Assembly: GCA_030650425.1 (NCBI GenBank)
Contig: JAUSED010000005.1
Span: 14,932-78,931, forward strand
DNA length: 64,000 nt
Reading direction: 5' to 3'
From: Candidatus Omnitrophota bacterium
Lineage (GTDB): Bacteria > Omnitrophota > Gorgyraeia > Gygaellales > Profunditerraquicolaceae
A model generated the notes under the pieces. The model ran no database searches, was not told the DNA's origin, and was given only the letters and a program-made list of their open reading frames with translations. Made by a program: the position numbers and the translations under genes. Position 1 is the stretch's first letter, and every line of letters begins with the position of its first letter. Shown here piece after piece: positions 1 through 64,000 of the stretch.

Positions 1-3000
1 GGTGTCGGGACAGCTCTATTTGATGAGTTCAAAAATAGGGCATTTGATGAAACCCGATGGAATGTAGAGCGTATCACAAGCAGTGAAATTTTTGAGAACG
101 GAGCGGCCCTTAAATTTTGGACAAAGAAGGTTGGGCCGGAGAATATTGAGAAAGAACATCTGTCTATCAATGGTAAAGAGGTCATTGTCCACTACGTAAA
201 TTATTTTAAAGATTCAAAAGGCGCCGCCTCCAGCCCCGCCGCAGCATTTACTTTTGGCGCGGTGATAAAGATGGAAGGTTCTATTCTGCGTGTGTCGACG
301 TCTTCGCCGACCTTGGTCTTACCCATACATCATGAAACCCATCAGTGGAATCAATACTTTGACATCTTAAGCGGTGATGAGGGGATCGCCGTTATCAAAG
401 AAATATTGGATCAAGATACAAAAGCCTATATAGGTTTTGGTGATATGGTTGGAGTCCGCGTGATGAATAAGGCCCATAGCGAATCTTTTATTAATGCCCT
501 TATCCCTTATTCTGTCCGTATCGTTAATAACGTTATGGTGAAGTATGGCGGCCGCGCGATCCGTATTGGAGGCGATGAAATCGGGATTATTCTGCCTTCT
601 GTATGGAAGCATAAAGAGGCGGAAGCTATCCGGTTGGAGGCACAGCAGGAAGTCGGGAATTCCATCTTGGGCAAATTCGGATTCGTAAAAGTTAAATTTA
701 CAAATATCCCGAAGAAGGAACAGGCTAGAGTCTTGGAGTTGGCGCGGCTGGAATTGGGCAGTAAAGAGAACTTTTTGGCCGGCTTATATCTGGACCATGA
801 TGGCATCCTTATTGTTTATGACAGGTTCGGCACGACTCTTGAGAAAGGCCTTGAAGATAATCTGATTCTTTTGGGCGCCCGGTTGGCCGCTGAAGGTATC
901 GGGGGTTCTGTAAAAAGCATTGGTAAGCCGGTTGAATTAGCCAGCCCGCGTGTGCTGTTTGGCGTAGTGAGAGCGCCTGTGTTGGAAAATGTGCACGCAT
1001 CCTACGGCGCTGCCATTAGCTACGCTGAGCGTATTTTAAATCTTGCCAAAAAAAGAAATATCCCGGGCGCATTAAGAGCACGGTTTTATAAAATCTTAAA
1101 GACTTCCACGCTGCCGCCTATTTCAGAAGAAGAGAAAGCCGCGATTATCGCGGATTTTCCGGAAGTTAAGCTTTATCCGGATCAAATTGAAGCGTATTAT
1201 CCGGTCTTTAACCGTAAGGCGCTGGTTAACATTGTCGGCCAGGCGTTTCAGTTCAGTGGAGCGCAGCTGGTCAAGATAGAGTCTAAATATATGCCAAGAA
1301 ACGGTTTCGCGGCCCGTGTGCAGCGAGCGATTTACCGGGGAAGGGTTACAGTTGATGCACTAAGGGGTGACGGTAAAGGCTGGTTTGGATTCAAAGTAAT
1401 CAATGACTTTAAGAATCACCAAACTGCCAACCAAGTTATTCTCTCAAATGCCCAAGCCATTAATAAGGTATTGAGAGATCAAAATATCGCAGGCGTCTTA
1501 GTGGTCAGGGCACCGCCGGATAGCTTCTATTTGGTTGTCCCCGGTACCAAGATGTCCATTTTTACTCCGCAAGAACTTGTGGCTCTGACAGACGCCATCG
1601 AAAAAGAAATGAATAATTCCAAACCGCTCCAAACTATTCAGGCCAGTGTGCGGCTGACGGTTAATTCTGTTTCCAGTGAGGATGAAGGTAAAGGCATTCA
1701 TCCTCTCATTTCAAAAGTGGATAATCTAGCTAAGGTAACAATGAGTATCCCGTTCTTGGCCACAAAGGGTGGCAATGAAGTCAAGATATTCAAGCGTGAA
1801 TTTAATAGAGGGTTTGAAAGAGAGCTTGGTAAGTCAAGGAGCGTCGAACGTAAGAAATTCCAGAGTATCTTAGGAGTTACAGCTTTGTCTTCCACCAGCT
1901 CTCCTGTGGGTTTTAGCCCGTATGCATTCGAAGTTAAAATTTCCAAAGATAGCCGTGACTTGCTAGATAAAGCTTTGGCAGAAAAACTATTAAAATTACA
2001 GTTTGAGATCGTTAAGACACCTGTAGCAGAAGACGTGCGCACCACGGTGGCCGCCTTCAAAGGTGTTGGTTCGGACGGTAAGGATGTTCTGGGATTGGCA
2101 CGTAGCGTACAGAATGCCGGCAGCTTAAGTGCTTCTGCTGATGCCGGTTATAGCCTGATTGAGATTATTGACCGATTATTGGCTGACGGCGTGCAGGATA
2201 TTAAGCTTGTGCTCATCTATTATCCGTCAACGGCCAGCACATACGTACCGTCCATGAAATACTTGAATAATGGGCTTCCTAGAGAGGCAGCTTTCCAAAC
2301 TGTGATTACGCCGGATAGTAAACTTGGGAAACAGGAAGCGCTCAAAGAGCTGAAGGATGTCGTTGTTAAGGTAACCAAGCACGGAACAATAATCAATGCC
2401 ACTAATATGAATGGCAATAAAACCACGGTCAATATTGCCTGGGCCAAGGGATCCTCTTCGCCGTTCACTTCCAGCCCCGCAGCCGCAAACCAGCTTAAGA
2501 TTCTGCTTGTAGATGATGAAAGTAGTTTACGCGAGTTAACGCGTATGTTTTTAGAAATGAACGAGAATAAAGTTGATGAAGCAGTAGATGGCCAAGAGGC
2601 GCTAGAAAAGTTAGGCAGCACTAAATACGATTTAATTCTTACTGACTTAGATATGCCTAGAATGGGTGGCCTGGACTTGGCGCTTGCGGTCAGTCAATTC
2701 AGCAGAGGTGAATTAAATGCAAATACTCCTGTCATTATGACAAGCGGCAGAGGAATTAAGGCGGATATTATTTATTATATTGAAAATGAACTATCTGGCG
2801 CAGCCGATAAACTAAAAGTAGTGGAAAAAATAGCAGGATTCTTGAGTAAGCCATACATGAATAAGGAACTTATAAAGATGGTGGATAAAGTTATCTCGGC
2901 CAAGGAAAATTCTTCTTCTGAGGATAGCGGCTCTAGCCCCGCTTCCACAAAGCTTGTTAGTATTAGCAAAATAGCCAAAGATTCATGGGCAAGATTTACT

Positions 3001-6000
3001 AAGGAAAAAAGAATACTTTTCTGGAGAGTATTTGCTATTTCTTTGGACACGATAAAATTTGGAGTAATCGATGGCGACTGGATTAAAGAATTGGATGCGC
3101 AAATTTCTCAGGAAGCCAAAAATTATGGAGTCTCAAAAATAGATCTGCAAGAAGCGTTAGCTAAAATGGCTAAGCAGGAATTTGGCGATAGGGAGGGTTT
3201 AATCTTCAGTAGAGGCTCTTCACCGGTAGTGAATCAACAAACAACGGAGTGGGAAACAATAAGAGCTGTCTTGTTAGCGGCAATTTCTACCCTCTTAGAC
3301 TTGACCGGCATTCTGTACGATATCCTTGGAGCTTGGGAATATTTGACGATTATTCCTTTGTCAGTATGGTTGGGCAGGAAATTTATGCAAATAACAAAGC
3401 CTTATATGCTCGATAATAGATTACGGAATAGGATGTATGAGGCATTCCCTCTAAATCGGCCGAGTATAAAAACATCTCAAGAGAATATTCCAAAGCACGC
3501 CTCAAGCCTGGCCGGCTCCAGTCCGATTAATAAAAAACAGAAGAGTCAGATTAGAGAATTTATAAATTCTACTATACAAAACTTCGGCTTTGTTAGAATT
3601 AACGAAATAAAGGTTTATACTAAACATATGTTAGGAGCAGAGATAACGCAAGGAGAGGCTGAAAAGTTGTTCATAGAGGCTGGTTTAACGGAGAAAGAAG
3701 GGTTTTGGAAGTTTACCTCTAGTCCGGCTCAGGGGCTTGATAAAAAGATTATAATTCAAGAAGAGGACAAGGATAAGATTGGGTTAAGAGATGCGGAGGC
3801 GATCAAGAAAAGCCTAGTAAAGGGTATCGTAGAGAATGGAAATGTGCCAATGGTTATTGAGGCTATCCGGTCTATTTATGGAAAACTTATTAAAGAGACG
3901 GAGATTAAACAAATCGAAGTTCGATTATTTAATGACGATGGCAGCCATAAAAGAGTCTTTTTAGTTAAGGTTATTGGCGCGCAAGACGCGCGTTGGGAGT
4001 TTATACTTAAAGTCTTCAGGCCGCAGCCCGATGAATCGAGCGGCAGGCATATCCTGACGCCAGACGATATCAAACGCTCTAGAAAATCAGCTTATATCTT
4101 AAGCGCGGCCAGCCTTCATCCTAGAATAGGACCGGATATAGAAGTAAAACTTGATTCAGGAGAAATAGTCTCGGTTTATTCAGAGGCACGTGCCGAGGGA
4201 GACACGTTAGCTCAATTACGCCAACGTCTCGCGCTTGATTTCGCGAATGGAATACTTTCCCAAGAAAGATATTTAGCGGCATTGGATAAATTAGAGCGGA
4301 CCGTAGTGATGGGTGTTATACGAATGTGGTTAGTCTTAGGCAATCGCTATATTACAGATCCCAAGCCGGAAAATATTATCATTACAGGGAGTTTTGAAGA
4401 CGGTTATCAAATATTCTTTATTGATCTGGATTACGTAACAAAAGATGAGGTAAGCTTGGCTGAGGTGTTGGATACCTTGCGCAAGTTCTATGGGAAAAGA
4501 GAAGGGAAATGGACCAACAATATTATATATGCCTTAATTGATATGTATGGACACCAAGATGCGAAGGAAGCTTTGGAAGATGTTCTAAATAAGCAAATCC
4601 CAGATTTAGACAAAGAGTTGCGCAGGCAAGATGGCATTAGAGAAGAAGATTTTCCGGCGGGGGCTTTCACATATTTTGTTGAGTTAAAAGAAATGCTTTC
4701 AGGGTATAAGGAAGTCTTAAAAACTTATCAACGCATGGATGCTCATCGTAATTCAAGCCCGATAAATAAAAATATTAGATATTTTGGCGCAATAGTTGCA
4801 GGATTAACAACTTCTTCACCGATGGCCAAAAATATTCCGTTGACTCGCAGAGGCTTTATTAAGCTTACTGCTTTTCTTGTTGGCTTAGGTGTCTTGGATA
4901 CTCAAGAAGCGCTTTCTGTCGTCTCTAAGTTATCTACTCAAGAGTTATCTTCATATGTGGAATTCTTCTTAAATCAGGGAGGGTTCCAAAACTTTATTCC
5001 TTCGCATTATCCTTCCACAAAAGAAAACAAATCTAATCCTGATTATGCTTACCGTTATTATGCCGCCTACAGCTATGATATGGCCATATACGCGATTGTT
5101 TTAAAGATGCTTGGGTTTAGCTCTCAAGCAGAGAAAATCTTAGGGCCTTATAGTCAGATTCTTAATAAGGATATTTATCAGTCGCAGCCTAATTATGGAC
5201 CGGTAGGGGGTATTTTCCGTTCTATAAGGGTCTTGGAAAGAGAAGGAGAATGGTGGAAGAAGTGGGACTGGGGAGTAGAAGTAGGCCCGATGGCTTGGTT
5301 AGGTATTACTTCGCTAATCGTAAATCCTTCTCAGTTTAAGAATCTTGCGGTATATATCGCTGATTGGATTACAAAGCTTCAAGACAAAGATGGTGGTTTT
5401 AGAATGGGGCCTCGCGGCCAGTACCATCCTGAGGGCCCAGAGTTTTACTATAATACTAAATCTACAGAGAATAATGAGAGCGCTATTGCCTTCTTAGATT
5501 TACTTTATAGTTCCACAAAAGAATCAAAATACAGGGAAGCCAGTGACCGGGCATTTACCTGGATTATGAAAATGTACGATAAAGAGGCGGGGGTATTCTT
5601 TAGAGGCTCCCGTTTTGTTAATGATAAATGGGTGTCTGACGCCCATAATGATTTCGCGTCAGATACATCCAGCTGGGCTCCGTTTGAGAGATTGAAAGGA
5701 AAAGTCGGCTTACAAGGCATTGAAAGAATGCTTACTGAGACTTTAAAATTAACAGGTGTTTATGAAAATAATAAACTTTTAGGTGTAAGCTTCTCAATTT
5801 CGTCTAAGCCGGCAATTTCCATTGAGTGGTCATCTCAGTTTGCGTTAAGGGCCTTAAGGTTAGCCAATGAAACAAAGAATGAGCATTGGATTAATGTTTA
5901 TAACGACATTTCGCAGGCCCTTTCCAAATACTTTATAGATGTAAAGACATCTAATCTGGTTCCCGCGGAATACAAAAAGTATAAAGGCCAAGTTGCCCCG

Positions 6001-9000
6001 TACGCGGTCAATACGCAAGGCGAGCCAATGAGCCTTCCTACAGGGCACGGAGCGGTTACTCCTTTAAGCCTTGCTTCTTTAGCCTCTCTATATTATGTTT
6101 TCGCGGCAGCAAGATTCGATCCTTTAGAGAATATCAAAGTGAGTTCTTCGGTACTGCGGAACCCGCAGAATGAAATTTTCTTAAAATATGCTTCTTCAGC
6201 CGGTTTAAACCGTGATGGGCCTATTGGATTAGCCTCTAGCCCCGTAAAATCTTTTAGTTCTTTAGTTACCTCCGTTTATAAATTCTTCAAAAATACTTTT
6301 ATACAAAACCCGCTTTACTCGTTTGTTGTGATAGCAACATTTGTCGTAAATATCTACGTTGCCAAACTACTTTCAGAGAATATAGTTGCGCTTCCATTTG
6401 TTGTCTTATCCGTTTTATTAACATTGCAGAGTTATTCTATGATTAGTTTCGGTATCGCAGCCCTATTTGTTAAAGGCGCAAGGCCCCTAGCTCAGTTAGA
6501 ACAAAATGATTTGCCTCAAGTTACGGTTCAGATCCCAACGCGCAATGAACCGTTTGAAGTCGTAAGGATGACCATTGAGTCGGCAATGTCTTTAGATTAC
6601 CCAAGGAACCGGCTTGAAATTCAAGTGATCGATAATTCTGATTTATACATAAAAGACGCGGCAGGGGAGTTACGGCCTAACGGAAATTATTTGAGAATTA
6701 AAGAGTTCGCGAAGAACAATGCTAATAAAGGATTAATTTTTATTCACCGCGATGGGACGCAGGGGTATAAAGCCGGTAATCTTAACTTGGGCATGAAAAC
6801 AGCCGCTGGTGAATATTTCTTAATTTTAGACGTAGATTCAACGGTAGCTAAAGATACCCTTTTAAGCGCGCTCCCCGAATTTAAACATAACCACAGCCTT
6901 GGATTTGTGCAATTTGCTATGGAACCTACAAACACAGAAAATAATTCTTTAACAAAAGTGCTGGCGATAGGAGCAAGAATATTACGTTCCCAACAGGCGG
7001 CAAAGACAAAATACGGGTTTACCCTTTTCTATGGCCATAACGGTATTTGGCGAAAGAGCGCGCTTGATAAGATCGGCGGGTGGCAGGCTACTGTTTCTGA
7101 AGATACTGATACAGCGATTGAGGCGCGCTTGGCAGGTTTTTATGGAAAATATCTGCCTTATGTAATCAGCGGAGAATGGTCTCCTACGAGCTTTGCGGAG
7201 GTACAGAAACGAACGCGAAAATTTGCATTTGGGACAACACAGTTATTCTTTCAGAAAGTTATAAGAATTTTAGCCTCAAAAGCGTTGCATTGGTATGAAA
7301 AAATAGATATCCTGTTACATTTATTGAAATATCCTCTTAGCGCGACTATCTTACTTTTAGTTTTCTTGCCGTTCTTTATTCCTTCGCAAACACCATTAAT
7401 ACTGGGGATTTTTATGATGTATATAGCTCCATTAACTCCTATTTGGCTTCTACTGGTCAAAGATTTAATAAAAAGTGATTATAGAAATGCTTTTGAGACG
7501 TTGCGGAGAATTCCTGCCATGACATCAATATTTAACGCAACGATTCCTGCTATCGCAATAGGAACTATATTTGCGTTGGTTGGCAAGCAGGAAGGATTTA
7601 AAATAACCTTTAAGGGAAAACTAACGAACCCTTTATTAGCCCAGGTTATTAAAATAAACGCATTCGGTATAATAACCGGTTCAGTTTATTTCGTTATTTT
7701 ATGGATATTTTCGCCTTTGCAGAACAATATTGCGTACTTACCGGCTATGACGATGGCTGCTGTTCTTATAGGGCCTTTTAGGCATAGTTTTGCCAGGGTG
7801 GCGCAGAAACAGCCCGATGTAGGCCTGCCGAATATACTTGATTTACTTGAAGAAGGGCTTATTCATACTCCTAAGTCTTATGGTTCTGTAAACACAAAAA
7901 ATACCAGAATTAATAATAAGTGGGCGAGCATCGGGTTTGATTTGACGCGGCCTGTTGATGTAACTCATTATGACTATTTAATTGTAAGGGTAAAGGGCGC
8001 GCAGGGTGGAGAACGCATTCAGGTGAATTTGCGCGATAATCTTTGGGAAGACTATGATACCCCGCAGGCAAAGAGTAATATCGTTCCTGATGCCGGATTG
8101 TTGAGAGAAAATTGGCAGGACGTAAGCATTGATTTAAGCGCGCTCCTCAATAGGGAACGCATAGACCTAAGCCATTTATCGCATTTGGCTATTGAAATCG
8201 GCCAAGACACTGTTGGTAACCTGTCCGGAACAGAGATTGAAATTGAGCGGATTTATTTTGTTAGCTCGCCTGTATCGCCACATCAAAGCGTTTCTTGGTC
8301 GCCAGCAGTTATAGAAAGCAATCTTAGGGAACTTACAGGCCTGATTAATAGGATTATTGCGTTAGCAAGGAATCCGAATGTGAATAATAAAAAGATAGAA
8401 GGATACGCAAAAGACGCCACGATCATAGCCCGAGAATTAAGGAATAATGAGGCAAATGAAAGCGCGTATGCTCGTGAATACAGGGAGCAGGAAAAGAGAT
8501 TAATCAATGTGCGGAATTCAATATATTATAAGAAGAATGATGGCGGAAGGAATATTGTCGGCAATAAAATAAGGCGTAATTACGAGCGTAAATTGATGTT
8601 CGGTTTCCTTTTAACCAGAAATGAAGTTAAGGACTTAAGAGCGCTCTGGAGAGAATTCGATGTCCAATGTCTCTATGGTTATAATTTCGAGAGTAAAAAA
8701 CTACTTACTCTGAAAACATTGGCCAAGGCTTACAATAGAGTAGGGGATATTGGTCTATTAAGGCCTATTTTGGATCAAGTAATTTCTTATCTTCCAACAT
8801 ACCTTAGGCCGTCAAGAAGGATAGCTTATATATCTTTAGAGAGGGCCTTAAAAGCATATGAAATGTCTTTATATGATCTAGAAGCGGTTTTGGAAGACTT
8901 TGAAGAAAAAACAAATGGATTTTTTACCGCAAAGAGGGCCTACACAACCTATTTACAGCCAAAAGCAGAGGAATTATACGCTACGGAGCAGCTTTGGGAA

Positions 9001-57000: not shown

Positions 57001-60000
57001 AGGCGCTCTTCAATCCCATCAATAAGCCAGCCACCAGGATTAGAGAAGACGTATTCTTTAGCGGGAGCAGACTTCTCAAATCTGTCGTCAAACGCGCAGA
57101 GTAGATCCCACAGGGAGCCTGTATCAAAGATAAAATATTTCGGGGCTCCATTTTTATCCACAACGGCCGCGGCCTTGAAGTCCTTAAGTTCCGATTTCTT
57201 CAATTTTTTAGGAATAGCCGCGAATTTCTCAATGGGTTCTATTTTGACAGACTCTTTTGATGACTTAACTAATGATTTTGATCTCATTTCTTCATCCTCC
57301 CTTATTTATAAACAGTATAACACATTCTTTTTCGATCTGTCAAGCCGGATATCGTTAACGAATAATAGGGGTGGTTCTATTTTAAGTAATAAAAATCGCT
57401 CCAGCTCGCCGGCGAAAGAGATAAGATATGATGCGGATGAGGCACAGGATGTATCTCTTGGCCTAAAGCCAATAAAAGCTGTGGTTGAAGCTGCGCGGAG
57501 CCTCATTAATGGATTAGATAAAAGGACTATAGGATTAAGTAAGGTTAAGGGAGAGTCTGTTATCGTGCAGTTTAAAAATAAAACAAAGCAGGAGAAAGTT
57601 TGGCTTAACTTTGGCACAAAATTAAGAGATTTTGTTTCGCTGATGGAGGTAAGATTACTTTCAGATCCAGATATTAAGGTAAAAGTCTTGATCAATATGT
57701 TTAGCAAAGACAGAAAATTCTTGCTAATTTTTTATACTAATGACAAGGTTTATTTCTATGATACTTATGGAGAGATAGGGTCTTTAATTAAATTAGATAA
57801 GAAGGCACAAATATTGGGTCTTGAAAAGTTATTAAAAAATAAAGCGGTAAAAAGTTTTATTGATTACGTCCTCATTGGATATATTTCTCAACCAAAGTTT
57901 ATCAATGAAATTATTAAAATTTATCCTGCCCGTCCCTATAAGGCTAGGGGGGGTACAGAGCTTCGTTTTGATAAGACGGGCTATGAACTTCCTGATAGCA
58001 AAGAGACAGAGTTGGGAAGGATTCTGGAAAAAGAAATGGTCATCGTAACAGATAAAATAGCGGAGGGTAAAATATTTACTATTTTACTTGAAAAAGATTC
58101 GCTTAATAAAGCCGCTCCACACTATCTTTTATTTTTATCCCTATGCGATAGGGTACAACTTTATAACGAAGCCGGTTTTATTGTTGAATATATCAAAGAC
58201 GGGAAAAATCACGGCTACAGCGATAACCTATTCATCAACACCTTTCTTCTTAGTATCGCTTTTAAGCAAGAGTCAGCATGGAAGACTTTAGATTTAGGCC
58301 GCCAAGCGACGCACGCGATTGTTATTGGCGGGGCAGATAGAGGCTCTTTAACAATTCCAACTACAGGTATAACTTTAGAAGCATTGAATATTCGTAAAGA
58401 CGGCGGGGCGTGGATACCTGTTAAGCGGATAAGAAAAGGCGATATCATCTCGGGAGTTTGCGGTTTAGGGGGAGGCCAGTATTATGTTGACGGTATAGGA
58501 GCGCCTTTAGGAGACAAAAAATTCCCGGCTATTCTTTTAGAAGGAAAATTAAATCTTCCAAGTGTAATCCGCTGGCTATCGCAAGATGGCTCCAAAGAAA
58601 ACATCCCTGTTTCAGAATTTTTGAAAGAACTTTTTGGCAGCCGAGCAGAGAACGGCCAGAGTAAAAAGATTATGTATAGATTAGAAAAATCTAAATCCAA
58701 AAGGCCGGTTTATGATAGAAAAACAGCTCAATGGTTGGAAAAAGTTGTTTGGATCATCGTTGATTATGGCAGTGAAGAAGAATCAGGAATATATACATTG
58801 AATAAAGTCGTTGATAAGTTGGTAGAGATGAAAGGAAAGTTTAATCCCCTCTCTGTTTATATCCTTAAAGATTTACGCAGGGCTATTATTGAGCATCTGC
58901 CTTACGCAGCTTTAGCCCAACAGGAGGCAATTGAACGCATTCTTTCATTAGCTTTGCCGCAAGTGAGCCGAGAATTAGCCGAAAATCCACAAATGCAAAA
59001 ATGGATAGGAACGGCTATCCGCGGTTTATGTCAGGCAATAAAAATTAACCTAATCTCAGCTTTAAGACTACATGCTTTATTGGCAATCGAATATTTAATG
59101 GTTACAGAAGATGTCAAGCAAGAAATAAATGGGTTAATAAAATCCCGCGTTCTTAATGAAAACAAGGGAAATAAACTTCGAATTATAGATACGGCTTTGA
59201 TTTTAACAGTAAGGCTAAATTCAAGCCCGATTCTAGCCCCGAGAAGCACTTTAGTAAAGCCGGATAATAAAGATTATTTACTTCATCTAGAAAGTATTGA
59301 GGCAAGCTCTTCGTTTAAAGATATCCACACAGGGCCTTCTCCTCCGGGGATAAATTATTATCTCGCCCCATCCAATTTCTCCGCCATAAATATTTGTTTT
59401 ATAACTTCTAGTTCACCAATGGAAGAGAAGGCAGATAATTCTGAAAATAAGTATCGTGCCCCCGGAATTACGCGCTCTAGCTCACCTTTAAAACGAAACA
59501 ATCGCAGGCAAGATAGAACATACATACCATCATCTTTAGAAAGATACGGATATAATTTGGGCCAGTATTTCGATAAGTATTATGCTAAATACCTGTCCGG
59601 GGGGATTATTGCTAAACTTGAGGAAAACGGTTATTTCGAAACCCTTTTTGGTACGTATGTAAACACGCCTACGCCTAATTATATAGAACTGGTTAGTGAT
59701 ACAGAGCTGCAAAGAAAGATTGGCCTGCTCTACCTGAGCGGTTTGGGATTCCTGATTGAAGATGGGGTAAGTTTTGCCTGGACAGAGGGGAATTTTATAC
59801 ATCCGATATCAGCAAGGCCTCTTAATATAAAATACGCAGAAAGCGAAGATTTATTCCTTAGAGTAGAGCTTATATTGCAGAATATGCCTTTAGCTCAGCA
59901 GGATGAGTTTATAAAGATGCACTTGGCGCCGATCTTGTGTAAAACCCCGGAATTCTTAGATAAATTGATTACCTTAATTTTAAATATGCTCGATATAGAA

Positions 60001-63000
60001 GATAAAGAAGGATTGATTAAAGATTTAGAAAATTCCTATATTGTTGTTAAGGAGAGGAATTTACCTAAACCTTCGATGTATATTTTGCGGGAATATCTTT
60101 CTACCTTAGTCTTGCATGAAATTGGAGAATGCATCTTTTTTGTCTTACCCGACACTCTTAAGGAAGAGTGGAGGACTTTAGTTACCAGGGAAGTCCTTCC
60201 TTATCTTGGCATCATATATCTTAGGGGTTATGGTAAAGCGATTATACAAAGAGCGCAGGAAATATCTGCACAAGGTGCATTAAGGCTTGGCAGATTGGAA
60301 GAGGAGTTCTTTGCCGATGCCTTTACAGTAATCTTTGACAGGAGGAAGAATATTTTTGCAGAATTTGGAGAAGGGATCCGTGACGAATGGGAAGAGTTCA
60401 TGATTAAGAAAGTAAAGCCATACTTAATCAAAAAGCACAACTCTGGCAAGAATAGCTGGCAAGTTGAAAGCGGAGAGATCATTAGAATCTATAGAAATTC
60501 AGCCATAATTGAACCGAATGATGTAGAAGAGTCATCGAGGGAATCTTCCAGCTCACCGGCGAAGCAATCCTCTTCTCCAATCGAAGGCTATGCCGTTGTG
60601 ACGGATGGTAAAACTGATTCTGCCGCCGAAGAGGGCAATCCGGGAGCACATTGCTCAACAGCTTTAATCTCCAGCTCAGCGATGGGTATAAGCCGCAGAA
60701 GCTTTATTAAAAATAGCTCTTTGGTTTTATTGGGTCCGTCGAGATTAGCCTCTCTCTTGCGTTATTTAAGCGCGTTATCTTTGGCAGGCTGTGGCGGAGG
60801 CGGCGGCACGGAAAACCAGGCCCCTGCGCCTCTTCCGGCCCAGACTGAACTGGAGTGGATAAAGAGCAGGGTTAACCCCTCAACATTCCTTGCGGAAACT
60901 TACCAAGGCCTTTCATCAACAGACCTCTCCTTTAAAAAGTCCTTCATTTACGACCAAGGTTTGGCTATCAGGGCCTTAGTGGAATTTGGCGGCCCGGAAG
61001 AGTTTGCGCTGGCTGAAAAGATGATTGATGCAAACGGAAACGGAAACGTAGACAGTTTATCCAGCCCATTGTCTGCCATAGACTTAGAAAACAAATCCAA
61101 AATGACAAGCCGCTCCAGCTCGCCGGTGGAGAAACAAGGTGAAAGATTAGAACTGATCCTAACTTATATAGGCGATTATCTTTTACGCAGCAGCTCAAGA
61201 AATTCATTCGGAGATAGAATATCAAAGCCTTTGGCTTTGAGTACGAGAATGTCTTTGTCTAAGCTCACTAAGGGGACTTTTGATTCTGCAGCTAAGGACA
61301 GGATAAAATCATCTTCGCAATCTCTACAGATATCTAACTCGAGGCGGGTTTTGAGCTTATGGCTCTTGTCGTCAATTAACGCCACAAGTTCCTTTGCTTC
61401 ATTAGCGGGAATAAGCCTTTTAACCTTTGGTTTACTTAAAGTATCATTGAGCTCTTTTAGTAATTTCTCAGATACAATTAGCGTAAATTCCTCATTGATA
61501 AATGCGTTTAAGATAGGCCTGGTCAATGAGCTATTCATCAGCGCGCTTATCCAGATATTCGTATCAATGACAACCTTAAGCATATTAATTAGCTTTTCTT
61601 ACTTTCTTTACAATGCGTACAATTTCGTCGTTAGAAAGAACCCTGCGGTTCTTAATCCGCTTGTCGATTCTAGAGATGAGATTCTTAAAGCGCAATTGCC
61701 AAGTCTCCAAGTTCAACCTTCGGGCAATGATCAGTTTTTCTTCCAATGGAAGTTCTTCTATAAGATTCTCAACCTGCTTAGTATTAAGTTCCAAAGTTAC
61801 TTTAGACATGTAAAACACCTCCTATCATTAATAAACTACTCGTCAACAAATTATAACCCAATGCCGCCTTTGCGTCAAGTTTATAATCTTCAGAGGATTG
61901 TGAATAAAGAGGAGAATAAAGGTGACGGTTCTATTTATTTCCAGTATTTCCAGCGAGAAAATACAGACAGTTTACCTATCCCATCGTTTACCAAGGAGTT
62001 AAGAAATAAATCCGTAATGACAGGCCGCTCCAGTTCGCCTGCGGAATTGAGTTATAGATGGAGTTTATTTATAAGGATTAGGGAAGGGGCAGATTATTTA
62101 CTCAATATTTTAAGACAACTTTCAGCAGTTAGTACTTTAAATGGTAGGTCAGCAGAACGACGGGATAAAAAATGCCTATTTTCTGTTACCAATGCATCTG
62201 CGCCTGTATATTCTGAAAACGCGCCAATAAGCGCGTCTGCGGGCTTAAGCCCTAAAGTTTCATATTTTGTGCCTAGTTCAAATGGCACCTCAAAGTCTTC
62301 ATCAATTTTAGTCCAAGCATTGATGAGAAGTATAAATTCCTTAAAGGCTTCAGGCGTTAGATTATCGCGCACCTCTTCAATGATTAAGCGCAGGATTCGC
62401 ACGGTGATATCTTCTGGACGTTCTGCTATTTTTTCAATCAGTTTTTCAGAAGGCGGATATCTGACTGCGCCTAAGGCAAAGATGTATTCATTACTATCGA
62501 GAATGAGCCGCAAATTTTGCCTCCCAAATCTTTTCACGAGTTTTACGAATTTTCTCAATTATTTCTTGCTTGCTAAGACCCCGGCACGGGGAGCTGACTT
62601 TGGACATAAGTTGTCGAATCTTGTCGATGCGCTTTTTAACTTCTTGAATATTTTTTCTCATAATTCTTCACCTCTAAGTAAGGTTAACATACCTAAAAAC
62701 TTTAGTCAAGTGGTTATTACTAATGACTACTTCAGTCCTCTTAGCCGTGGTGCTTCGCCGATTAAGCAGGGTTATCGTAGCTTTGCGGTGGAAGCAGCAC
62801 CTTCTATAAAGAAAGATTCTGCGCGCAAAACGCCGTTTAGGCCGAGTTCAAGTAGCCCTCTTGGTTCTCTTGTTACAACTCTTGGCGGATATCATTATAT
62901 CGGGTTGCGCCAAAGAATAGGACTGGATGACCATTTTGCCAATGGGCCGCCTGCGGTAGATACCTCTAGCCTATCAAGGATTTTTTCCATAACATCTTCT

Positions 63001-64000
63001 CCTATAATAGATTACATAAAGCGTCTACCTATTCTACCTATTGTGTCCCTTTCGGGAGCGTCCCCTATTGCTACCCACTCAGTTTCTCTTTTTATTGAGA
63101 TTATCCGTAAAGGCGCTGGCGCCTCTAGCCCGGTAGTTTTAGAGGCTAAGAAAAACTATAGAGATTTGATGCATGATCTGAGGGGAAATTTTATTGTTGT
63201 TAGGAGTTGTATACTTAAAGGCCAGAATGAGCTGCCTCAATATTTTGACAAAACTAATGCTGATTATACAGTAATTCCGGAGCTGGAAGCTTTCTTAAAA
63301 GCGGCAGATGTATTTATTCAGATGATGGACAAAGATTCGCGTTTCATACAAGAAGAAATCAATCAGGGATTACCCAGGGAAGGGCTGCCAAGAGAGGAAA
63401 CAGAAGAAACAATAAGCAAGAACCTGGGCCCATTTTATCAAGCGCTAAAAGGCCTTGAGAAATTAAAAGATAATTTTACAGAGCGGGTAAATTTATATAT
63501 GAACCTATGTGTTAGCGCCAGTAATGCGGCGCTTGTGACAATGAACAAATTATTATTCTGGACAGGGTATTCGATGTGGCCATGTGAAGACTTGAATAAA
63601 TTTATTAAAGAGATAGTGGAGCCTTTTAGGGCGCAGCACTTTGGTTATCTTCGAGAAAGCGCATTCACTAAAGCAGAGCCGCAGAAATTACTGGACGCGG
63701 GAATAGCAAGGAAAGCGGATGGGCGAATACATTGGAGCGTCTCTAGCGAGCAGGAATTATATCAGAAATTAGCCGAACTAGAGAATTCAAACATTGAATT
63801 TGTGGTTAAACAATGGAAGGCCTGGCGCAAGATCGAATTTACGATCAAAATCTCGAAGTTCTTAAAGGCCGGAGAAGTTTCTGTCTATACAGATGTTATA
63901 AGGGATACTTTGACAGACCTTGCTAACAATGCCATAAAGTACAGCGGGGCAAACAAAATAGAGATTAAGGTTTTCCATAAAAAAGGCGAGGCGCATTTTA
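1..64000 (+). CDS. giant multidomain ORF in frame +1, partial at both ends (no in-frame stop anywhere in the window; at least 21,333 codons)
   Basis: ORF track has no +1 ORF with both ends in the window; only eight short +2 ORFs and none in +3. Codon-by-codon read of 53761-54180 and 60481-64000 plus about 15 scattered lines found no stop. The translation is protein-like with many recognisable domain motifs. Confidence 0.85.
300..800 (+). other. domain: degenerate GGDEF-like nucleotide-cyclase fold (GGDEI)
   Basis: ...YIGFGDMVGVRVMNKAHS...VKYGGRAIRIGGDEIGIILP at 541-600 matches the DxDxFK...RYGGDEF pattern with F->I. Confidence 0.45.
2497..2895 (+). other. domain: CheY-like response-regulator receiver (REC)
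   Basis: KILLVDDESSLRELTRMF...YDLILTDLDMPRMGGLDLA...TPVIMTSGRG...LSKPYMNKEL. The acidic pocket DD, the phospho-acceptor D in TDLDMP, and the conserved T and K are all present. Confidence 0.85.
3730..4750 (+). other. domain: protein-kinase-like fold (kinase-like 1)
   Basis: Catalytic-loop-like ITDPKPENIIIT at 4351-4386, followed by IFFIDLDY (DFG-like) at 4411-4434. Confidence 0.4.
4822..4875 (+). other. internal Met plus twin-arginine (Tat) signal-like segment
   Basis: In-frame ATG at 4822, then MAKNIPLTRRGFIKLTAFLVGLGVL. TRRGFIK matches S/T-R-R-x-F-L-K and is followed by an h-region. It sits directly after an SSP linker (TTSSP). Confidence 0.5.
4900..6230 (+). other. domain: alpha/alpha-toroid-like (six-hairpin glycosidase-like?) family, copy 1
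   Basis: YRYYAAYSYDMAIYAIVLKML ... DGGFRMGPRGQ ... ESAIAFLDLLYSS ... DKEAGVFFRGSR. It is paralogous to 12870-13900 and to the fragment at 60880-61040. Confidence 0.3.
6240..8270 (+). other. domain: family-2 glycosyltransferase, processive synthase-like, with polytopic membrane region and a C-terminal beta-rich module
   Basis: QIPTRNEP...QVIDNSD (6520-6650), ILDVDS (6820-6840), GHNGIWRKSALDKIGGW...SEDTD (7030-7110), QKRTRKF (QxxRW-like). TM helices at about 7300-7800. Confidence 0.7.
9480..11800 (+). other. polytopic membrane domain (many predicted TM helices)
   Basis: Long hydrophobic runs, e.g. LLAVSLASLFIAGAALYLGYLL, ITPFIYIGVLFISAFI, GIPILVALIPLLKALLLIL, WLFSGPVALALVT. The function is not recognisable. 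Confidence 0.5.
12229..12378 (+). other. domain: LysM peptidoglycan-binding
   Basis: YIVKPGDNLSTIAQKTLGKAGLWPKIYELNKKVIGSNPNLIFAGQKFSLP. Confidence 0.75.
12870..13900 (+). other. domain: alpha/alpha-toroid-like family, copy 2
   Basis: YGKSYIYDLAVYIDVLSY...DKGVFRFTSDKKD...TEHQISAYAAFNWLV parallels 5040-5600. Confidence 0.3.
15650..16900 (+). other. coiled-coil-rich region
   Basis: Q/E/K/L-rich heptad-like stretch (NQLRRQMVAFNKLAEAINRL...QELSTVNAKISEAEQLLAKAQA...). Confidence 0.4.
26440..27060 (+). other. domain: HAD-superfamily phosphatase-like (sugar-phosphatase type)
   Basis: Motif I VFIFDIDGTVS at 26452-26484 (DxDGT), with downstream small hydrophobic/S-T motif II candidates. Confidence 0.5.
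29497..29682. repeat. R2 repeat, copy A (about 185 bp; 157-bp core at 29524-29680)
   Basis: 96% identical to 50482-50663. Frame +1 encodes SSSPIQTGALVGTRFEQQVARLMGVGSLSETLRGIDIRTKEELANGAIGQINSFLAAKGLS. Confidence 0.9.
29730..30650 (+). other. domain: sugar-phosphate nucleotidyltransferase-like (NDP-sugar pyrophosphorylase fold)
   Basis: VRPIVMAAGNATRFSRF (29728-29780; the G-x-G-T-R signature) and a later KGHGDAF. Confidence 0.5.
31600..35110 (+). other. module P1: expanded CofD/YvcK (UPF0052)-like domain plus a conserved C-terminal region
   Basis: CFGGGSGTLAIL at 31831, VHVLQSSIDDGGSTFK at 31930, GITFGPGSFFTSTMPHFLVKGLAKAL at 33330-33410. Paralogous to P2. Confidence 0.6.
35158..36640 (+). 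other. domain: glycogen/starch synthase-like (GlgA, GT5)
   Basis: MHIVMVSAEAYP from ATG 35158; PDVIHVHDWPISLIPLL (35560-35620; compare GlgA DVVHAHDWH); GILPGVDYEAFDPVED; C-terminal MPHSAVPGSFVPLYSLRYGTVPVVNAIG (compare GlgA SRFEPCGL..LY.LRYGT.P.V). Confidence 0.75.
37850..38860 (+). other. domain: ROK-family sugar kinase-like (copy 1)
   Basis: VLVGLDMGGSYIKLV at 37855 and VYLINDGDADAF at 38245. Confidence 0.6.
38880..42380 (+). other. module P2: paralog of P1 (expanded CofD/YvcK-like)
   Basis: CFGGGSGMLAIL at 39110, VHVLQTSIDDGGATFK at 39190, GITFGPGSFFTSLMSYFLAKGLAKAL at 40585. Collinear with P1 and about 55% identical at the amino-acid level by eye. Confidence 0.6.
42800..43790 (+). other. 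domain: ROK-family sugar kinase-like (copy 2)
   Basis: LWFGLDIGGSDLKTVVV at 42820 and VYVINDGDAAA at 43170. Confidence 0.65.
43850..45250 (+). other. domain: phosphoglucomutase/phosphomannomutase (alpha-D-phosphohexomutase)
   Basis: GGIMITASHNPYHYNGFK at 44130-44185 (the active-site Ser loop), GIAFDGDADRL at 44560-44590 (the metal loop), GGEQSGHFFF at 44810. Confidence 0.85.
46200..46850 (+). other. domain: protein-kinase/APH-like phosphotransferase fold (kinase-like 2)
   Basis: RLFIGDPTPFNIVLL ... KIIDLDGI at 46648-46740. Confidence 0.4.
46880..47760 (+). other. domain: canonical-length CofD/YvcK (UPF0052)-like
   Basis: ITSLGGGSGPQRL at 46890, ITVFDNAGSTGIMRR...PAVGDLRN at 46960-47040, ADIIIIGPGSITSYIPVLLTRGIAGAI at 47610-47690. 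Motif spacing matches YvcK. Confidence 0.7.
48180..48540 (+). other. domain: HATPase_c (RsbW/SpoIIAB anti-sigma-factor kinase-like)
   Basis: LREAIDNSIAHAKGKVWIIWGV...EVKDEGDK...DGKGIGLKIIKN. Confidence 0.5.
48640..48960. repeat. R3 repeat, copy 1 (about 300 nt)
   Basis: Shares ..gaggcaatggt.attg.tgcttcaagc...ttagtaaagcc.., ..ccaataggttccataaacg.tctacaata.. and the terminal gtgttcccggaattgcc with copies 2 and 3. Confidence 0.6.
49700..50400 (+). other. domain: nucleotidyltransferase head (poly(A) polymerase / CCA-adding enzyme type)
   Basis: IILMGGGVRDIFFDSEITDADVSI at 49757-49830 (the GGxVRD...DxD signature). Confidence 0.5.
50482..50663. repeat. R2 repeat, copy B (core 50506-50662)
   Basis: 6 mismatches over the 157-bp core, 4 of them synonymous in frame +1. 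Confidence 0.9.
50880..51690 (+). other. domain: kinase-like 3 (APH/PKL-like)
   Basis: ISIGEGGYSTVFKVTINDKYAFVLKI ... KIIKIFDIDLARD. Weak match. Confidence 0.3.
51720..52200 (+). other. domain: GNAT N-acetyltransferase
   Basis: IYVYQMAVMPRYQSRGIGAGLFKKLVDFSQ at 51940-52020 (the motif A R/Q-x-x-G-x-G/A). Confidence 0.65.
52230..53220 (+). other. membrane segment (4-6 TM helices), function unknown
   Basis: VFSIIVLGVFAYVFL, GLVYLVFGTL, AVFVFVFFIAIAGL, FSGILLGFILL, ALIVFGSIAPFVIAI. Confidence 0.4.
53731..53877 (-). pseudogene. hicA-like toxin remnant (C-terminal half only; no start, overlaps the hicB 3' end)
   Basis: The minus frame gives FAHPGHSQDLTRRVVVPLHGSSSIKPGTLRAILKGAAISIEDFKGLLK, which matches the HicA C-terminus (..hp...vtvPvH...GTLRsILKqAgls.eef). 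No N-terminal helix or start codon. In-frame TAA at 53878-53880. Confidence 0.45.
53847..54044 (-). CDS. hicB: HicB-family antitoxin (UPF0150)
   Basis: MLRRFKIILEKEPSGGFSVTIPSLTGCATQGETLEEAIRNAKEAVSLYIETMKEDNLPIPAILKT. AGGAGG at 54051-54056 lies 6 nt before ATG 54044. The ORF-track start at 54068 lies at or upstream of the predicted transcription start. Confidence 0.8.
   Translation of the reverse strand: MLRRFKIILEKEPSGGFSVTIPSLTGCATQGETLEEAIRNAKEAVSLYIETMKEDNLPIPAILKT
54071..54099 (-). promoter_or_regulatory. sigma70-type promoter for hicB: TTGACT, 17 nt, TATACT
   Basis: Minus-strand read: cTTGACTtactttaccgaagaggtTATACTctatgttatcaagaAGGAGGttaaaaATG. -35 at 54094-54099 and -10 at 54071-54076. 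Confidence 0.7.
54175..54468. repeat. R3 repeat, copy 2
   Basis: Same blocks as copy 1; ends gtgtccccggaattaaccctt directly before the in-frame ATG at 54469. Confidence 0.6.
54469..56320 (+). other. TM-anchored HEAT/ARM-repeat segment
   Basis: In-frame ATG at 54469, then MILTGLKFIVGILGIVGLILLF (TM). Repeats with AAEALGSLIG, TTRAAGCLIQLGEPA, IKSLAKIASPEA, IVRTLGENK, LHAALALLEIDP. Confidence 0.45.
56505..56601. repeat. R1 repeat, copy a (about 90 nt; ends in the 19-nt SSP-site)
   Basis: aatgtagacagtttatcc...ttagaaaacaaatcc...ggccgctccagctcgccggcggaag. Lies immediately 3' of the relE stop on the minus strand. Confidence 0.75.
56623..56883 (-). CDS. RelE/ParE-family toxin
   Basis: MLTKVEFTPAGEREFKKLSLPLQKRVIEKIDLYIFSGKPLYFAKPLVNLPPATHRFRVGKYRICFYLVSGSIVIDGVDTREDAYRK. 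Only 8 nt downstream of the upstream ORF's stop (translational coupling). Confidence 0.7.
   Translation of the reverse strand: MLTKVEFTPAGEREFKKLSLPLQKRVIEKIDLYIFSGKPLYFAKPLVNLPPATHRFRVGKYRICFYLVSGSIVIDGVDTREDAYRK
56892..57287 (-). CDS. putative antitoxin (unclassified family) of the RelE/ParE module
   Basis: 131-aa ORF immediately 5' of the toxin. AGGGAGG at 57296-57302 lies 8 nt before ATG 57287. Consensus promoter upstream. Confidence 0.45.
   Translation of the reverse strand: MRSKSLVKSSKESVKIEPIEKFAAIPKKLKKSELKDFKAAAVVDKNGAPKYFIFDTGSLWDLLCAFDDRFEKSAPAKEYVFSNPGGWLIDGIEERLPINPKLASRLKRGIEEAQALGLVSFDKIKHKLGMS
57314..57343 (-). promoter_or_regulatory. sigma70-type promoter for the antitoxin-RelE operon: TTGACA, 18 nt, TATACT
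   Basis: Minus-strand read: gcTTGACAgatcgaaaaagaatgtgtTATACTgtttataaataAGGGAGGatgaagaaATG. -35 at 57338-57343 and -10 at 57314-57319. Confidence 0.65.
59215..59490. repeat. R3 repeat, copy 3 (more diverged)
   Basis: ...ttagtaaagccggataataaag...gaggcaagctcttcgtttaaagatatccacacagggccttctcctccgg...gtgcccccggaattacgcgc. Confidence 0.5.
60685..61040 (+). other. Tat-signal plus lipobox lipoprotein-like segment, truncated by the R1/PIN cassette
   Basis: In-frame ATG at 60685: MGISRRSFIKNSSLVLLGPSRLASLLRYLSALSLAGCGGGGG. SRRSFIK is a twin-arginine motif and LAGC is a lipobox. Then FIYDQGLAIRALVEFGG (alpha/alpha-toroid-family N-terminus) runs into R1. Confidence 0.55.
61040..61131. repeat. R1 repeat, copy b
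   Basis: aacgtagacagtttatccagccc...ttagaaaacaaatccaaaatgacaagccgctccagctcgccggtggag. Lies immediately 3' of the PIN toxin 1 stop. Confidence 0.75.
61176..61583 (-). CDS. PIN-domain toxin (VapC/COG1569-like)
   Basis: MLKVVIDTNIWISAL...CRDCEDDFILSLAAESKVPLVSLDKDI. The conserved D in beta-1, the DD and the LVS.DKD signatures are present. Confidence 0.8.
   Translation of the reverse strand: MLKVVIDTNIWISALMNSSLTRPILNAFINEEFTLIVSEKLLKELNDTLSKPKVKRLIPANEAKELVALIDDKSHKLKTRLELDICRDCEDDFILSLAAESKVPLVSLDKDILVLKAKGFDILSPNEFLELLRKR
61585..61809 (-). CDS. putative antitoxin of PIN module 1
   Basis: MSKVTLELNTKQVENLIEEL... AGGAGGTG at 61816-61823 lies 6 nt upstream of ATG 61809. The ORF track extends to a GTG at 61818. 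Its stop is 1 nt from the toxin start. Confidence 0.55.
   Translation of the reverse strand: MSKVTLELNTKQVENLIEELPLEEKLIIARRLNLETWQLRFKNLISRIDKRIKNRRVLSNDEIVRIVKKVRKAN
61850..61878 (-). promoter_or_regulatory. sigma70-type promoter for PIN module 1: TTGACG, 17 nt, TATAAT
   Basis: Minus-strand read: cTTGACGcaaaggcggcattgggtTATAATttgttgacgagtagtttattaatgatAGGAGGtgttttacATG. -35 at 61873-61878 and -10 at 61850-61855. Confidence 0.7.
61955..62046. repeat. R1 repeat, copy c
   Basis: aatacagacagtttacctatccc...ttaagaaataaatccgtaatgacaggccgctccagttcgcctgcggaa. Lies immediately 3' of the PIN toxin 2 stop. Confidence 0.7.
62094..62558 (-). CDS. PIN-domain toxin 2
   Basis: ...LRLILDSNEYIFALGA...GADALVTENRHFL. 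The likelier start is TTG 62513-62511, preceded by GGGAGG plus 6 nt; that gives MRLILDSN... Confidence 0.75.
   Translation of the reverse strand: MRKFVKLVKRFGRQNLRLILDSNEYIFALGAVRYPPSEKLIEKIAERPEDITVRILRLIIEEVRDNLTPEAFKEFILLINAWTKIDEDFEVPFELGTKYETLGLKPADALIGAFSEYTGADALVTENRHFLSRRSADLPFKVLTAESCLKILSK
62494..62661 (-). CDS. putative small antitoxin of PIN module 2 (55 aa)
   Basis: MRKNIQEVKKRIDKIRQLMSKVSSPCRGLSKQEIIEKIRKTREKIWEAKFAAHSR. GAGGTGA lies 6 nt before ATG 62661. It overlaps the toxin start. Confidence 0.5.
   Translation of the reverse strand: MRKNIQEVKKRIDKIRQLMSKVSSPCRGLSKQEIIEKIRKTREKIWEAKFAAHSR
62681..62709 (-). promoter_or_regulatory. candidate promoter for PIN module 2: TTGACT, 17 nt, TAACCT
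   Basis: Minus-strand read: caCTTGACTaaagtttttaggtatgtTAACCTtacttagAGGTGAagaattATG. -35 at 62704-62709 and a weak -10 at 62681-62686. Confidence 0.45.
63130..64000 (+). other. domain: sensor histidine kinase core (HisKA H-box plus HATPase_c N-box), partial at the window end
   Basis: YRDLMHDLRGNF at 63160-63195 (H-box) and DTLTDLANNAIKYSGANKIEIKV at 63910-63980 (N-box). Confidence 0.6.

Follow-up and report, generated by a model that had tools for sequence, protein, structure and literature searches.

A recurring Ser-Ser-Pro-aliphatic motif at unit junctions of an Omnitrophota giant gene and its possible role as a polyprotein cleavage site

Is the product of a bacterial giant gene one chain or many products? 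Giant genes of 30,000–147,000 codons are a recent discovery in Omnitrophota, where they have been described as 'Archaeovorins' (West-Roberts et al. 2023, bioRxiv 10.1101/2023.11.21.568195) and as a 'multi-enzyme metabolic cluster' class (bioRxiv 10.64898/2026.06.07.730766). If and at which points their products are cut was stated to be unknown, and the absence of known cleavage points to prevent in-silico dissection (bioRxiv 10.1101/2023.11.21.568195). We analysed a 64,000-nt stretch (the window) of contig JAUSED010000005.1 from a Candidatus Omnitrophota bacterium, which lies within such a gene, and found that the tetrapeptide Ser-Ser-Pro-[V/A/I/L], hereafter SSP[VAIL], recurs along the encoded chain at the edges of complete units. 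We put at about 45% the probability that this motif is the punctuation of a bacterial polyprotein, most likely the recognition site of a lineage-specific endopeptidase whose cleavage we infer. The gene class is already known; the junction motif is new, as neither describing paper mentions it and nothing else on it was found in the literature searched.

Abundance and strictness of the motif

Analysis of the reading frames revealed that frame +1 is free of stops across all 64,000 nt, while each of the other frames contains 750–2,200. This frame holds 21,333 codons, above 10,000, and the gene continues beyond both window ends. Its amino-acid make-up is that of ordinary proteins and unlike that of a repeat protein, and self-comparison of the window gave few paralogous stretches only. 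Pfam matches tile the chain with GGDEF, REC, a HATPase-like unit, LysM, CBM30, HEAT, GT2, GlgA-type GT5 plus GT1, two ROK, PGM/PMM I–IV, and GNAT. There are also one full and three fragmentary CofD-like matches, about 40 transmembrane (TM)-like stretches by hydropathy of the window protein, and long stretches without Pfam annotation. The combination of GT5, GT1, PGM, REC, ROK, and HEAT with many TM helices fits the published descriptions of Omnitrophota giant proteins. The window is part of one giant multi-enzyme gene of the Omnitrophota type, in which dozens of complete proteins stand in one reading frame.

The named homologs belong to metagenome-assembled genomes of Candidatus Omnitrophota/Omnitrophica, including Ca. 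Aceula meridiana, and several further related loci to records labelled Planctomycetia/Planctomycetales. The best homologs in genome and metagenome collections are 45–54% identical to the window protein, and the gene's own protein is absent from a database of 5.8 billion proteins. Homolog searches gave only generic REC matches for the 5′ region and no match for aa 16520–17250.

A preliminary description of this DNA had reported about 40 copies of SSP[VAIL], and our counts bear this out. In frame +1, SSP occurs 47 times against 3.5–3.7 expected from composition (Poisson P = 5e-35), and SSP[VAIL] 43 times against about 1.1–1.2 (5e-51). The maxima reached in 500 shuffles of the protein were 12 and 5, respectively, so that the observed numbers lie far above what the Ser and Pro composition would give. 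SSP is the most over-represented tripeptide of the window protein (12.7-fold), and no excess was found in the other five frames, where the counts were at or below expectation. The residue that follows SSP is V in 18 sites, A in 9, L in 9, I in 7, M in 2, and T and F in one each; the residue before it is S in 21 of the 47.

The motif is recurrent, not regular. It had been described as regularly spaced and as starting at nt 2463; the first site is at nt 229, and the gaps range from 5 to 6,722 aa. The density is one site per ~225 aa in aa 1–3115 and aa 14124–21333, with only two sites in aa 3116–14123. The longest stretch that is free of SSP (aa 3116–9837) carries at least 24 TM-like helices with LysM as its sole Pfam match, and may be one very large membrane unit.

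A plain flexible Ser/Pro linker, which had been named as an alternative, is weakened by the strictness of the motif. SSP[VAIL] is enriched ~37-fold, and its variants with one residue changed (A/T/G-S-P, S-x-P, and S-S-x) do not exceed background. The sites do not lie in long low-complexity stretches of variable length with interchangeable S, T, P, A, and G residues, and their flanks are 2–3 SD more polar than average only. SSP[VAIL] marks one point within a short linker and does not itself make up an extended low-complexity one.

The same strictness bears on a modification or docking site, where the Ser-Pro would be phosphorylated, O-glycosylated or recognised by a binding partner so that the units are regulated or organised. 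A short, exposed, Ser-rich and Pro-containing motif in disordered segments would suit this role, and R at position −2 in 11 of the 47 sites gives it an R-S-S-S-P flavour. However, Ser/Thr kinases and O-glycosyltransferases usually accept Thr, and no Thr is used at either Ser position: TSP[VAIL] has 0 occurrences and the S-x-P variants, STP included, are not above background. The many cytoplasmic enzymes among the units speak against periplasmic O-glycosylation, and such a role would leave the placement at the N-terminal edge of units unexplained. We consider it very unlikely.

Position of the motif relative to the units

All 47 SSPs fall outside the Pfam domain matches. SSP is found 10, 20, 12, and 11 aa ahead of model position 1–3 of REC, GlgA, PGM, and CofD, respectively, and residue 1 of solved stand-alone homologs falls 0–17 aa after SSP in five out of five units (REC, GlgA, PGM, CofD, and GNAT). 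With sites named by residue, residue 5 of P. aeruginosa PMM/PGM aligned two residues past SSPL(14607), residues 6–8 of YvcK/CofD-family chains 8–10 residues past SSP(15617), and residue 1 of A. tumefaciens glycogen synthase with an in-frame Met 17 aa past SSP(11701); CheY residue 1 is, by extrapolation, the residue directly after SSP(824). A 170-aa N-acetyltransferase homolog covers the piece between SSP(17233) and SSP(17406) almost exactly. The SSP-to-SSP pieces have ordinary protein sizes, for example 154 aa for REC, 404 for CofD, 175 for an RsbW-like unit, and 173 for GNAT.

Unannotated units were searched for with aa 16199–17235 as a query against 1.84 billion representatives. The boundaries of the matches coincide with two SSP-delimited segments, and the matches include Met-starting proteins of 288–334 aa whose residue 1 is within a few residues of SSP. 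Residue 1 of two Met-starting proteins of stand-alone size, P0096 and P0116, maps at SSP(16922). In this region, a 296-aa nucleotidyltransferase of the CCA-adding/poly(A)-polymerase-like type (GGxVRD...DxD; PDB profile E 2.5e-7), which Pfam had missed, has its core closely enclosed by SSP(16533) and SSP(16829). This unit recurs in no fewer than 70 divergent proteins, most of them very long.

In an AlphaFold2 model of aa 14060–14720 (mean pLDDT 64), SSP(14124) and SSP(14607) are both in coil with pLDDT<50, outside the confident folded core which they flank. The preliminary description had placed the motif between domains rather than in folded cores, and this holds with one exception, SSP(19741). 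The sites that it had named at REC, at the Tat segment, at GlgA, after the paralogs P1 and P2, and near nt 63121 all exist (nt 2455, 2470, 2932, 4813, 35101, 42370, and 63124), while the HisKA expected after the last of them was not detected by Pfam at E<=0.1. Our analysis showed that SSP[VAIL] is a protein-level punctuation, a short recurrent motif in a short unstructured stretch 0–20 residues ahead of the native N-terminus of a unit.

Two of these units bear twin-arginine (Tat) signals. The strict consensus [ST]RRxF[LIVM]K occurs twice in the window against 0.006 expected. Tat signals are N-terminal features, and here they lie >1,600 and >20,000 residues into the chain. The first, MAKNIPLTRRGFIK..., stands directly after SSP(1605) and scores 13.5 bits with TIGR01409, below the cutoff of 16.7; the unit behind it is weakly GH88/alpha-alpha-toroid-like. 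The second, MGISRRSFIK...LSLAGC, lies ~35 aa past SSP(20191), and processing by signal peptidase II at its lipobox would itself cut the chain. These matches show that units keep their own predicted export signals. Signal-like or TM-like stretches as a whole are not significantly frequent after SSP (4 against 2.6, P=0.25).

A motif in such positions could also be an uncleaved structural punctuation, that is, a linker or 'insulator' in which Ser-Pro breaks structure or caps a helix while the intact chain works as a tethered metabolon. The sites are in short, polar, unstructured stretches between folded units, and SSP-x-E, with E at +4 in 13 of the 47, resembles S-P-x-E, a helix N-cap box pattern. 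As the giant ORFs without SSP demonstrate, fusion needs no processing marks, and neither the window nor the relatives scanned yielded a protease. However, a generic linker should allow S/T/A/G swaps and a variable length, which disagrees with the ~37-fold enrichment of the exact tetrapeptide and with the background level of its one-residue variants. The motif has also survived extensive codon replacement and a GC change from 40% to 56%, neither of the two modelled sites caps a confident helix, and a permanently tethered chain is hard to square with units that carry their own Tat or lipoprotein signals. We hold this explanation to be rather unlikely.

Encoding and conservation

The 47 SSP sites use 30 distinct 9-nt encodings, with both TCN and AGY codons at both Ser positions. 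This indicates that selection acts on the peptide, as the preliminary description had concluded from the many codon sets. A pure DNA repeat is ruled out by this codon diversity and by the enrichment in the coding frame only.

The near-identical 19-nt form that had been reported for the 3′ 15 kb is real as an 18-mer, TCCAGCTCGCCGGTGGAG, but it is limited to 10 of the 24 3′ sites and allows up to three mismatches (0.01 such sites expected). All ten sites are downstream of 48.5 kb, and three of them are exact. AGC-TCG-CCG is used at 10 of the 24 3′ sites against 0.7% expected from codon usage. The flanks of the ten sites are unrelated, except for three with an extended ENKSxMTxRSSSP element. This element, in a looser form (E/R)NKSxxxxxRSSSP, precedes three 3′ SSP sites (Table 1) and is conserved in DNA as well (GAAAACAAATCC...CGCTCC). 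No nucleotide sequence or structure that is conserved independently of the frame, as in an interspersed repeat or RNA element, was found across the sites, the 18-mer being present in the ten-site subset only. This version probably marks recently created or homogenised junctions and not a separate DNA or RNA function.

The 18-mer might instead be the active or recent form of an assembly scar or recombination handle, with in-frame cassettes shuffled at a short junction sequence that happens to encode SSP. Its ten copies with unrelated flanks and the preference for AGC-TCG-CCG would agree with this, and so would the difference in unit order between the window and a related contig, L012, where SSP stays at the junctions. 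A ~160-nt DNA tract that is 97% identical at two places in the window adjoins one junction, which indicates, as judged from the sequence, a recent gene conversion or duplication inside the ORF. However, most sites have diverged in DNA and yet keep SSP-aliphatic, including switches between TCN and AGY that take two substitutions, so that it is the peptide and not the DNA that is selected; the tract itself starts ~15 nt past SSP, in both copies, and not at SSP. A handle could exist alongside a protein-level function but is no substitute for one. As a sole explanation we find it quite unlikely.

An RNA or translation signal was considered too, with codons that pause ribosomes, mark mRNA processing, promote internal (re)initiation or cause stop-free peptide release. 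Against the ~40% GC of the gene, the GC-rich 18-mer is conspicuous; it also contains GGAG, and two sites are directly followed by ATG. The ten near-identical sites, however, have no consistent RNA structure, each taking a different fold with z-scores from −2.3 to +1.8. SSP is not followed by an excess of Met in the next 5, 10, or 20 residues, and the codons are highly diverse at most sites; we know of no ribosome-stalling motif that consists of a single Pro. Such a signal is hardly credible to us. Three specific forms were rejected: a common RNA hairpin at the ten 3′ sites (z-scores around 0), internal translation starts (no Met enrichment and, by eye, no consistent start-codon spacing after the GGAG of the 18-mer), and 2A-like ribosome skipping with the consensus D(V/I)ExNPG|P (no NPGP in the contexts of all 47 sites).

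Relatives also keep the peptide. The ROK-like module from SSP(14124) to SSP(14607) is also present in stand-alone Omnitrophota proteins of ~2,100 aa (P0003–P0005). Both of its flanking SSPs occur at the same places in P0001 (53% identity) and in L012 (52% identity), and SSP(14607) is kept in P0002 and P0004 as well. In P0001 and L012 the linker sequence around these conserved SSPs, and even the neighbouring units, differ from those of the window. L012 is a 125-kb metagenome contig with 56% GC, compared with ~40% in the window. Its frame is open throughout the 14.6 kb examined and contains 14 SSPs (0.97 expected), which makes SSP its top tripeptide, and all 14 fall outside Pfam domains. Its units follow another order than those of the window, with SSP still at junctions.

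SSP is the top tripeptide in P0037 (17 against 1.0 expected) and P0076 (7 against 0.57) as well. These two, P0038, and P0084, all divergent relatives of the nucleotidyltransferase unit, are SSP-rich, with V, L, I, or A next in 26 of 32 sites and usually a small residue before. SSP[VAIL] defines a subclade of Omnitrophota giant proteins with 40–56% GC, which includes L012, P0001, P0002, P0037, and P0076, and does not extend to giant genes in general.

Two further recurrent elements were seen in relatives. In L012, (M/L)GNVNQTR occurs ~15 aa after each of two SSPs (aa 26–47 and 1548–1569), a second recurrent element near junctions. The C-termini of the stand-alone relatives P0003, P0004, P0005, and P0084 (e.g. 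L002) share a conserved element, GGID(L/M)N...P(V/I)IIN(L/V)TP...LP(L/M)LGL, which may serve as a sorting signal specific to Omnitrophota; SSP stands ahead of it in P0004 and P0084, and the window does not contain it.

Proposed polyprotein cleavage and known systems

Exactness, exposure, boundary placement, lineage restriction, and internal export signals together mean that a cleavage site fits better than a passive linker. In the proposed mechanism, one chain with cytoplasmic enzymes, signalling proteins, membrane units, and Tat-exported units would be translated, and a lineage-specific endopeptidase would recognise SSP[VAIL] and release the units. If S-S-P-aliphatic is read as P4–P1, it would follow the substrate pattern of elastase and subtilisin (cf. 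Ala-Ala-Pro-Val), with the cut after the aliphatic residue. Speculatively, the enzymes could be the S8 subtilisin-like domains that have been reported near the N-terminus of complete giant genes, beyond this window. Only tentatively do we go further and suggest that the giant ORF is a true bacterial polyprotein, whose units, at least 40, are freed by an endopeptidase of the lineage that reads Ser-Ser-Pro-aliphatic. Possibly, though at less than even odds, these units would be enzymes, regulators, membrane proteins, and Tat- or lipoprotein-exported proteins, an operon's worth in one chain. Polyprotein processing seems the most economical reading, and it matches the question raised in the giant-gene literature.

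Several findings weigh against cleavage. Searches of the window protein (21,333 aa) with Pfam, with Pfam and NCBIfam at relaxed thresholds on the unannotated segments, and with catalytic-motif regular expressions gave neither a peptidase family nor a catalytic signature, and Pfam found no peptidase in the SSP-rich relatives L012, P0037, P0038, and P0084. To our knowledge, an absolute Ser-Ser at P4/P3 is not typical of elastase-like enzymes. For internal Tat signals a free N-terminus can, exceptionally, be dispensable, as in the actinobacterial Rieske proteins. Many giant ORFs of 2.5–7.8 kaa (L005, L007, L010, L014, P0034, P0041, and others) have 0–1 SSP, which means that giant multi-enzyme ORFs do not need the motif, and no substitute junction peptide stands out in them. 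In the window, SSP(19741) is inside a thrice-repeated ~120-aa module and not at a junction, and one copy of this module reads SLP where the others read SSP. Some unit boundaries lack SSP: it is missing from the 2,423 aa that run across GlgA, ROK1, and P2, and from the whole 6,722-aa membrane region.

Thus, of the cleavage site that the preliminary description had proposed, the selection at the protein level and the position at the N-terminal edge of complete units stood, while the cutting itself is something we infer and the suggested check for a protease domain found none in the window or in the relatives scanned. A comparison of the modules shared with SSP-rich and with SSP-poor relatives singled out no candidate enzyme. 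The widely conserved 296-aa module was ruled out as a processing enzyme, being the nucleotidyltransferase described above. An excess of ASP in P0052 (3,508 aa) was likewise ruled out as an alternative junction motif; it comes from a recurring TM element, ...GFLASP(A/G)G..., which is found five times (aa 605, 1210, 1946, 2505, and 3187) and is unrelated to SSP.

The gene resembles known Omnitrophota giant genes in having a single ORF of >20,000 codons, Omnitrophota homologs, PF08323 GT5, GT1, PGM/PMM, REC, ROK, HEAT, GNAT, and many TM helices. It differs in its motif, since a junction motif or cleavage site is reported in neither paper and the one found here is restricted to a subclade. C39 and S8 domains have been proposed as processing enzymes of giant proteins in the giant-gene literature, and Pfam found neither in the window. 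Unlike dockerin-type giant proteins, or the Archaeovorin architecture cluster of bioRxiv 10.64898/2026.06.07.730766, the window gave no Pfam match to dockerin (PF00404) or TSP3 repeats.

Viral polyproteins, such as those cut by picornavirus 3C (Q|G) or potyvirus NIa, also carry complete units in one chain with a strict motif of ~4 residues in accessible boundary linkers. Here, in contrast, the gene is a cellular bacterial one with at least 40 units, metabolic enzymes included, and no cognate protease for the putative cleavage was found in the window or the relatives scanned. MARTX and large clostridial toxins process themselves: their cysteine protease domain cuts at Leu residues of the linkers between effectors. 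They are likewise large modular bacterial proteins, with a short aliphatic-containing determinant (here a putative one) in unstructured linkers, but the present chain consists of housekeeping-type enzymes and regulators, with ~10 times more sites and a different and much stricter motif. Pfam matched neither an inositol-phosphate-activated cysteine protease domain (CPD) nor RTX-like repeats in the window.

Among processed bacterial surface polyproteins are the P97/P102 adhesins of Mycoplasma hyopneumoniae (S/T-X-F|X-D/E) and the gingipain/HagA precursors. Their endoproteolysis takes place at short motifs in disordered regions of large multi-domain proteins, as might be the case here, but at few sites per protein and in surface adhesins or proteases, not in chains of complete cytoplasmic enzymes. 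The X-X-Pro-(Val/Ala/Leu) substrates of elastase and subtilisin are an analogy: they would share the small-small-Pro-aliphatic pattern with S-S-P-[VAIL] as P4–P1. These enzymes, however, are secreted proteases of broad specificity, for which an absolute Ser-Ser requirement is not a known feature. The S8 proteases AprV2 and AprB2 hydrolyse MeOSuc-Ala-Ala-Pro-Val-pNA (PMC2991261).

The motif is a first concrete and testable candidate for where giant proteins might be cut, which makes the question of one chain or many products directly testable. It gives a rule for parsing giant proteins into units for structure and function prediction, as well as exact predicted neo-N-termini that can be checked in metaproteomes, and the SSP-rich and SSP-free lineages provide a phyletic marker for finding the responsible enzyme. 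If the proposal is true, the cleavage map for one clade of the largest known genes can be read directly from the motif. Confirmed cleavage would mean a cellular polyprotein strategy at a scale known only from viruses, would bear on stoichiometry and gene-expression control in ultra-small cells, and might offer a tool for multi-protein expression in bacteria.

Table 1. Coordinates of SSP sites and other features in the window.
Feature	Residues (aa)	Nucleotides	Strand	Remark
Single open reading frame		1..63999	+	0 stops in frame +1; runs off both window ends
SSPA	77	229..240	+	
SSPT	101	301..312	+	non-canonical 4th residue
SSPV	633	1897..1908	+	GGDEF match ends 58 aa upstream
SSPF	819	2455..2466	+	double site with aa 824
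SSPA	824	2470..2481	+	REC model position 1 10 aa downstream
SSPA	978	2932..2943	+	~20 aa past extrapolated C-terminus of CheY-like unit
SSPV	1073	3217..3228	+	
SSPI	1173	3517..3528	+	
SSPA	1240	3718..3729	+	
SSPI	1585	4753..4764	+	
SSPM	1605	4813..4824	+	its Met (ATG) is the start of the Tat-signal unit
Internal Tat signal, predicted		4822..4896	+	MAKNIPLTRRGFIKLTAFLVGLGVL; strict Tat consensus, TRRGFIK
SSPV	2079	6235..6246	+	membrane GT2 unit begins
SSPV	2755	8263..8274	+	23 aa past CBM30 match
SSPV	3113	9337..9348	+	6,722-aa SSP-free, TM-rich stretch begins
SSP-free stretch	3116-9837	9346-29511		6,722 aa
SSPI	9835	29503..29514	+	97%-identical tract shared with nt 50.52 kb ~15 nt downstream
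97%-identical tract		29530-29690 and 50515-50675		~160 nt
Paralog P1	10532-11697	31594-35091		
SSPV	11701	35101..35112	+	after P1, before GlgA
Paralog P2	12959-14117	38875-42351		
SSPL	14124	42370..42381	+	after P2, before ROK-like module
SSPL	14607	43819..43830	+	ROK-like module ends, PGM begins
SSPV	15617	46849..46860	+	CofD model position 1 11 aa downstream
SSPV	16021	48061..48072	+	35 aa past CofD match; 175-aa RsbW/SpoIIAB-like unit begins
RsbW/SpoIIAB-like unit	16024-16198	48070-48594		
SSPV	16196	48586..48597	+	18-nt family, 3 mismatches
~120-aa module, three copies		48595-48957, 54151-54480, 59158-59487		
SSPL	16317	48949..48960	+	two TM-like helices directly after
SSPL	16533	49597..49608	+	~13 aa ahead of nucleotidyltransferase core
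Nucleotidyltransferase	16536-16831	49606-50493		296 aa, CCA-adding/poly(A)-polymerase-like
SSPL	16829	50485..50496	+	~8 aa past nucleotidyltransferase core; SSP at same place in P0037, P0038
SSPV	16922	50764..50775	+	311-aa unit begins
SSPV	17233	51697..51708	+	GNAT unit begins; 18-nt family, 3 mismatches
SSPA	17406	52216..52227	+	GNAT unit ends; 18-nt family, 2 mismatches
SSPV	17742	53224..53235	+	exact 18-mer TCCAGCTCGCCGGTGGAG
SSPV	17900	53698..53709	+	18-nt family, 3 mismatches
SSPV	18048	54142..54153	+	copy 2 of ~120-aa module begins
SSPI	18137	54409..54420	+	copy 1 has SLP at paralogous position
SSPV	18776	56326..56337	+	exact 18-mer; 106 aa past HEAT match
SSPV	18846	56536..56547	+	
SSPA	18863	56587..56598	+	18-nt family, 2 mismatches; extended element ENKSATIGRSSSP at 56554-56595
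SSPA	19135	57403..57414	+	18-nt family, 3 mismatches
SSPI	19741	59221..59232	+	counter-example inside repeated module; paralogs read AMV
SSPM	19804	59410..59421	+	
SSPL	19827	59479..59490	+	copy 3 of ~120-aa module ends
SSPA	20184	60550..60561	+	18-nt family, 3 mismatches
SSPI	20191	60571..60582	+	second Tat signal ~35 aa downstream
Internal Tat signal with lipobox, predicted	20228-20264	60682..60792	+	MGISRRSFIKNSSLVLLGPSRLASLLRYLSALSLAGC; strict Tat consensus
SSPL	20354	61060..61071	+	
SSPV	20373	61117..61128	+	exact 18-mer; extended element ENKSKMTSRSSSP at 61084-61125
SSPA	20678	62032..62043	+	extended element RNKSVMTGRSSSP at 61999-62040
SSPL	20889	62665..62676	+	
SSPL	20951	62851..62862	+	
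SSPI	20999	62995..63006	+	
SSPV	21042	63124..63135	+	then ...LMHDLRG..., H-box-like

Some individual units deserve mention. The paralogs P1 and P2, of ~1,160 aa each and 51–65% identical, both hold a CofD-like fragment and both have SSP after them; their CofD-like part resembles stand-alone Omnitrophota proteins of ~2,100 aa (P0003–P0006), some of which are annotated 'ROK family'. The 175-aa unit after SSP(16021) is similar to RsbW/SpoIIAB, which are anti-sigma factor kinases; the match (E 9e-5) does not reach the family cutoffs. The 121-aa unit that follows has the size of an anti-anti-sigma (STAS) partner, although no match was found for it. The three copies of the ~120-aa module are SSP-bounded and share 45–52% identity.

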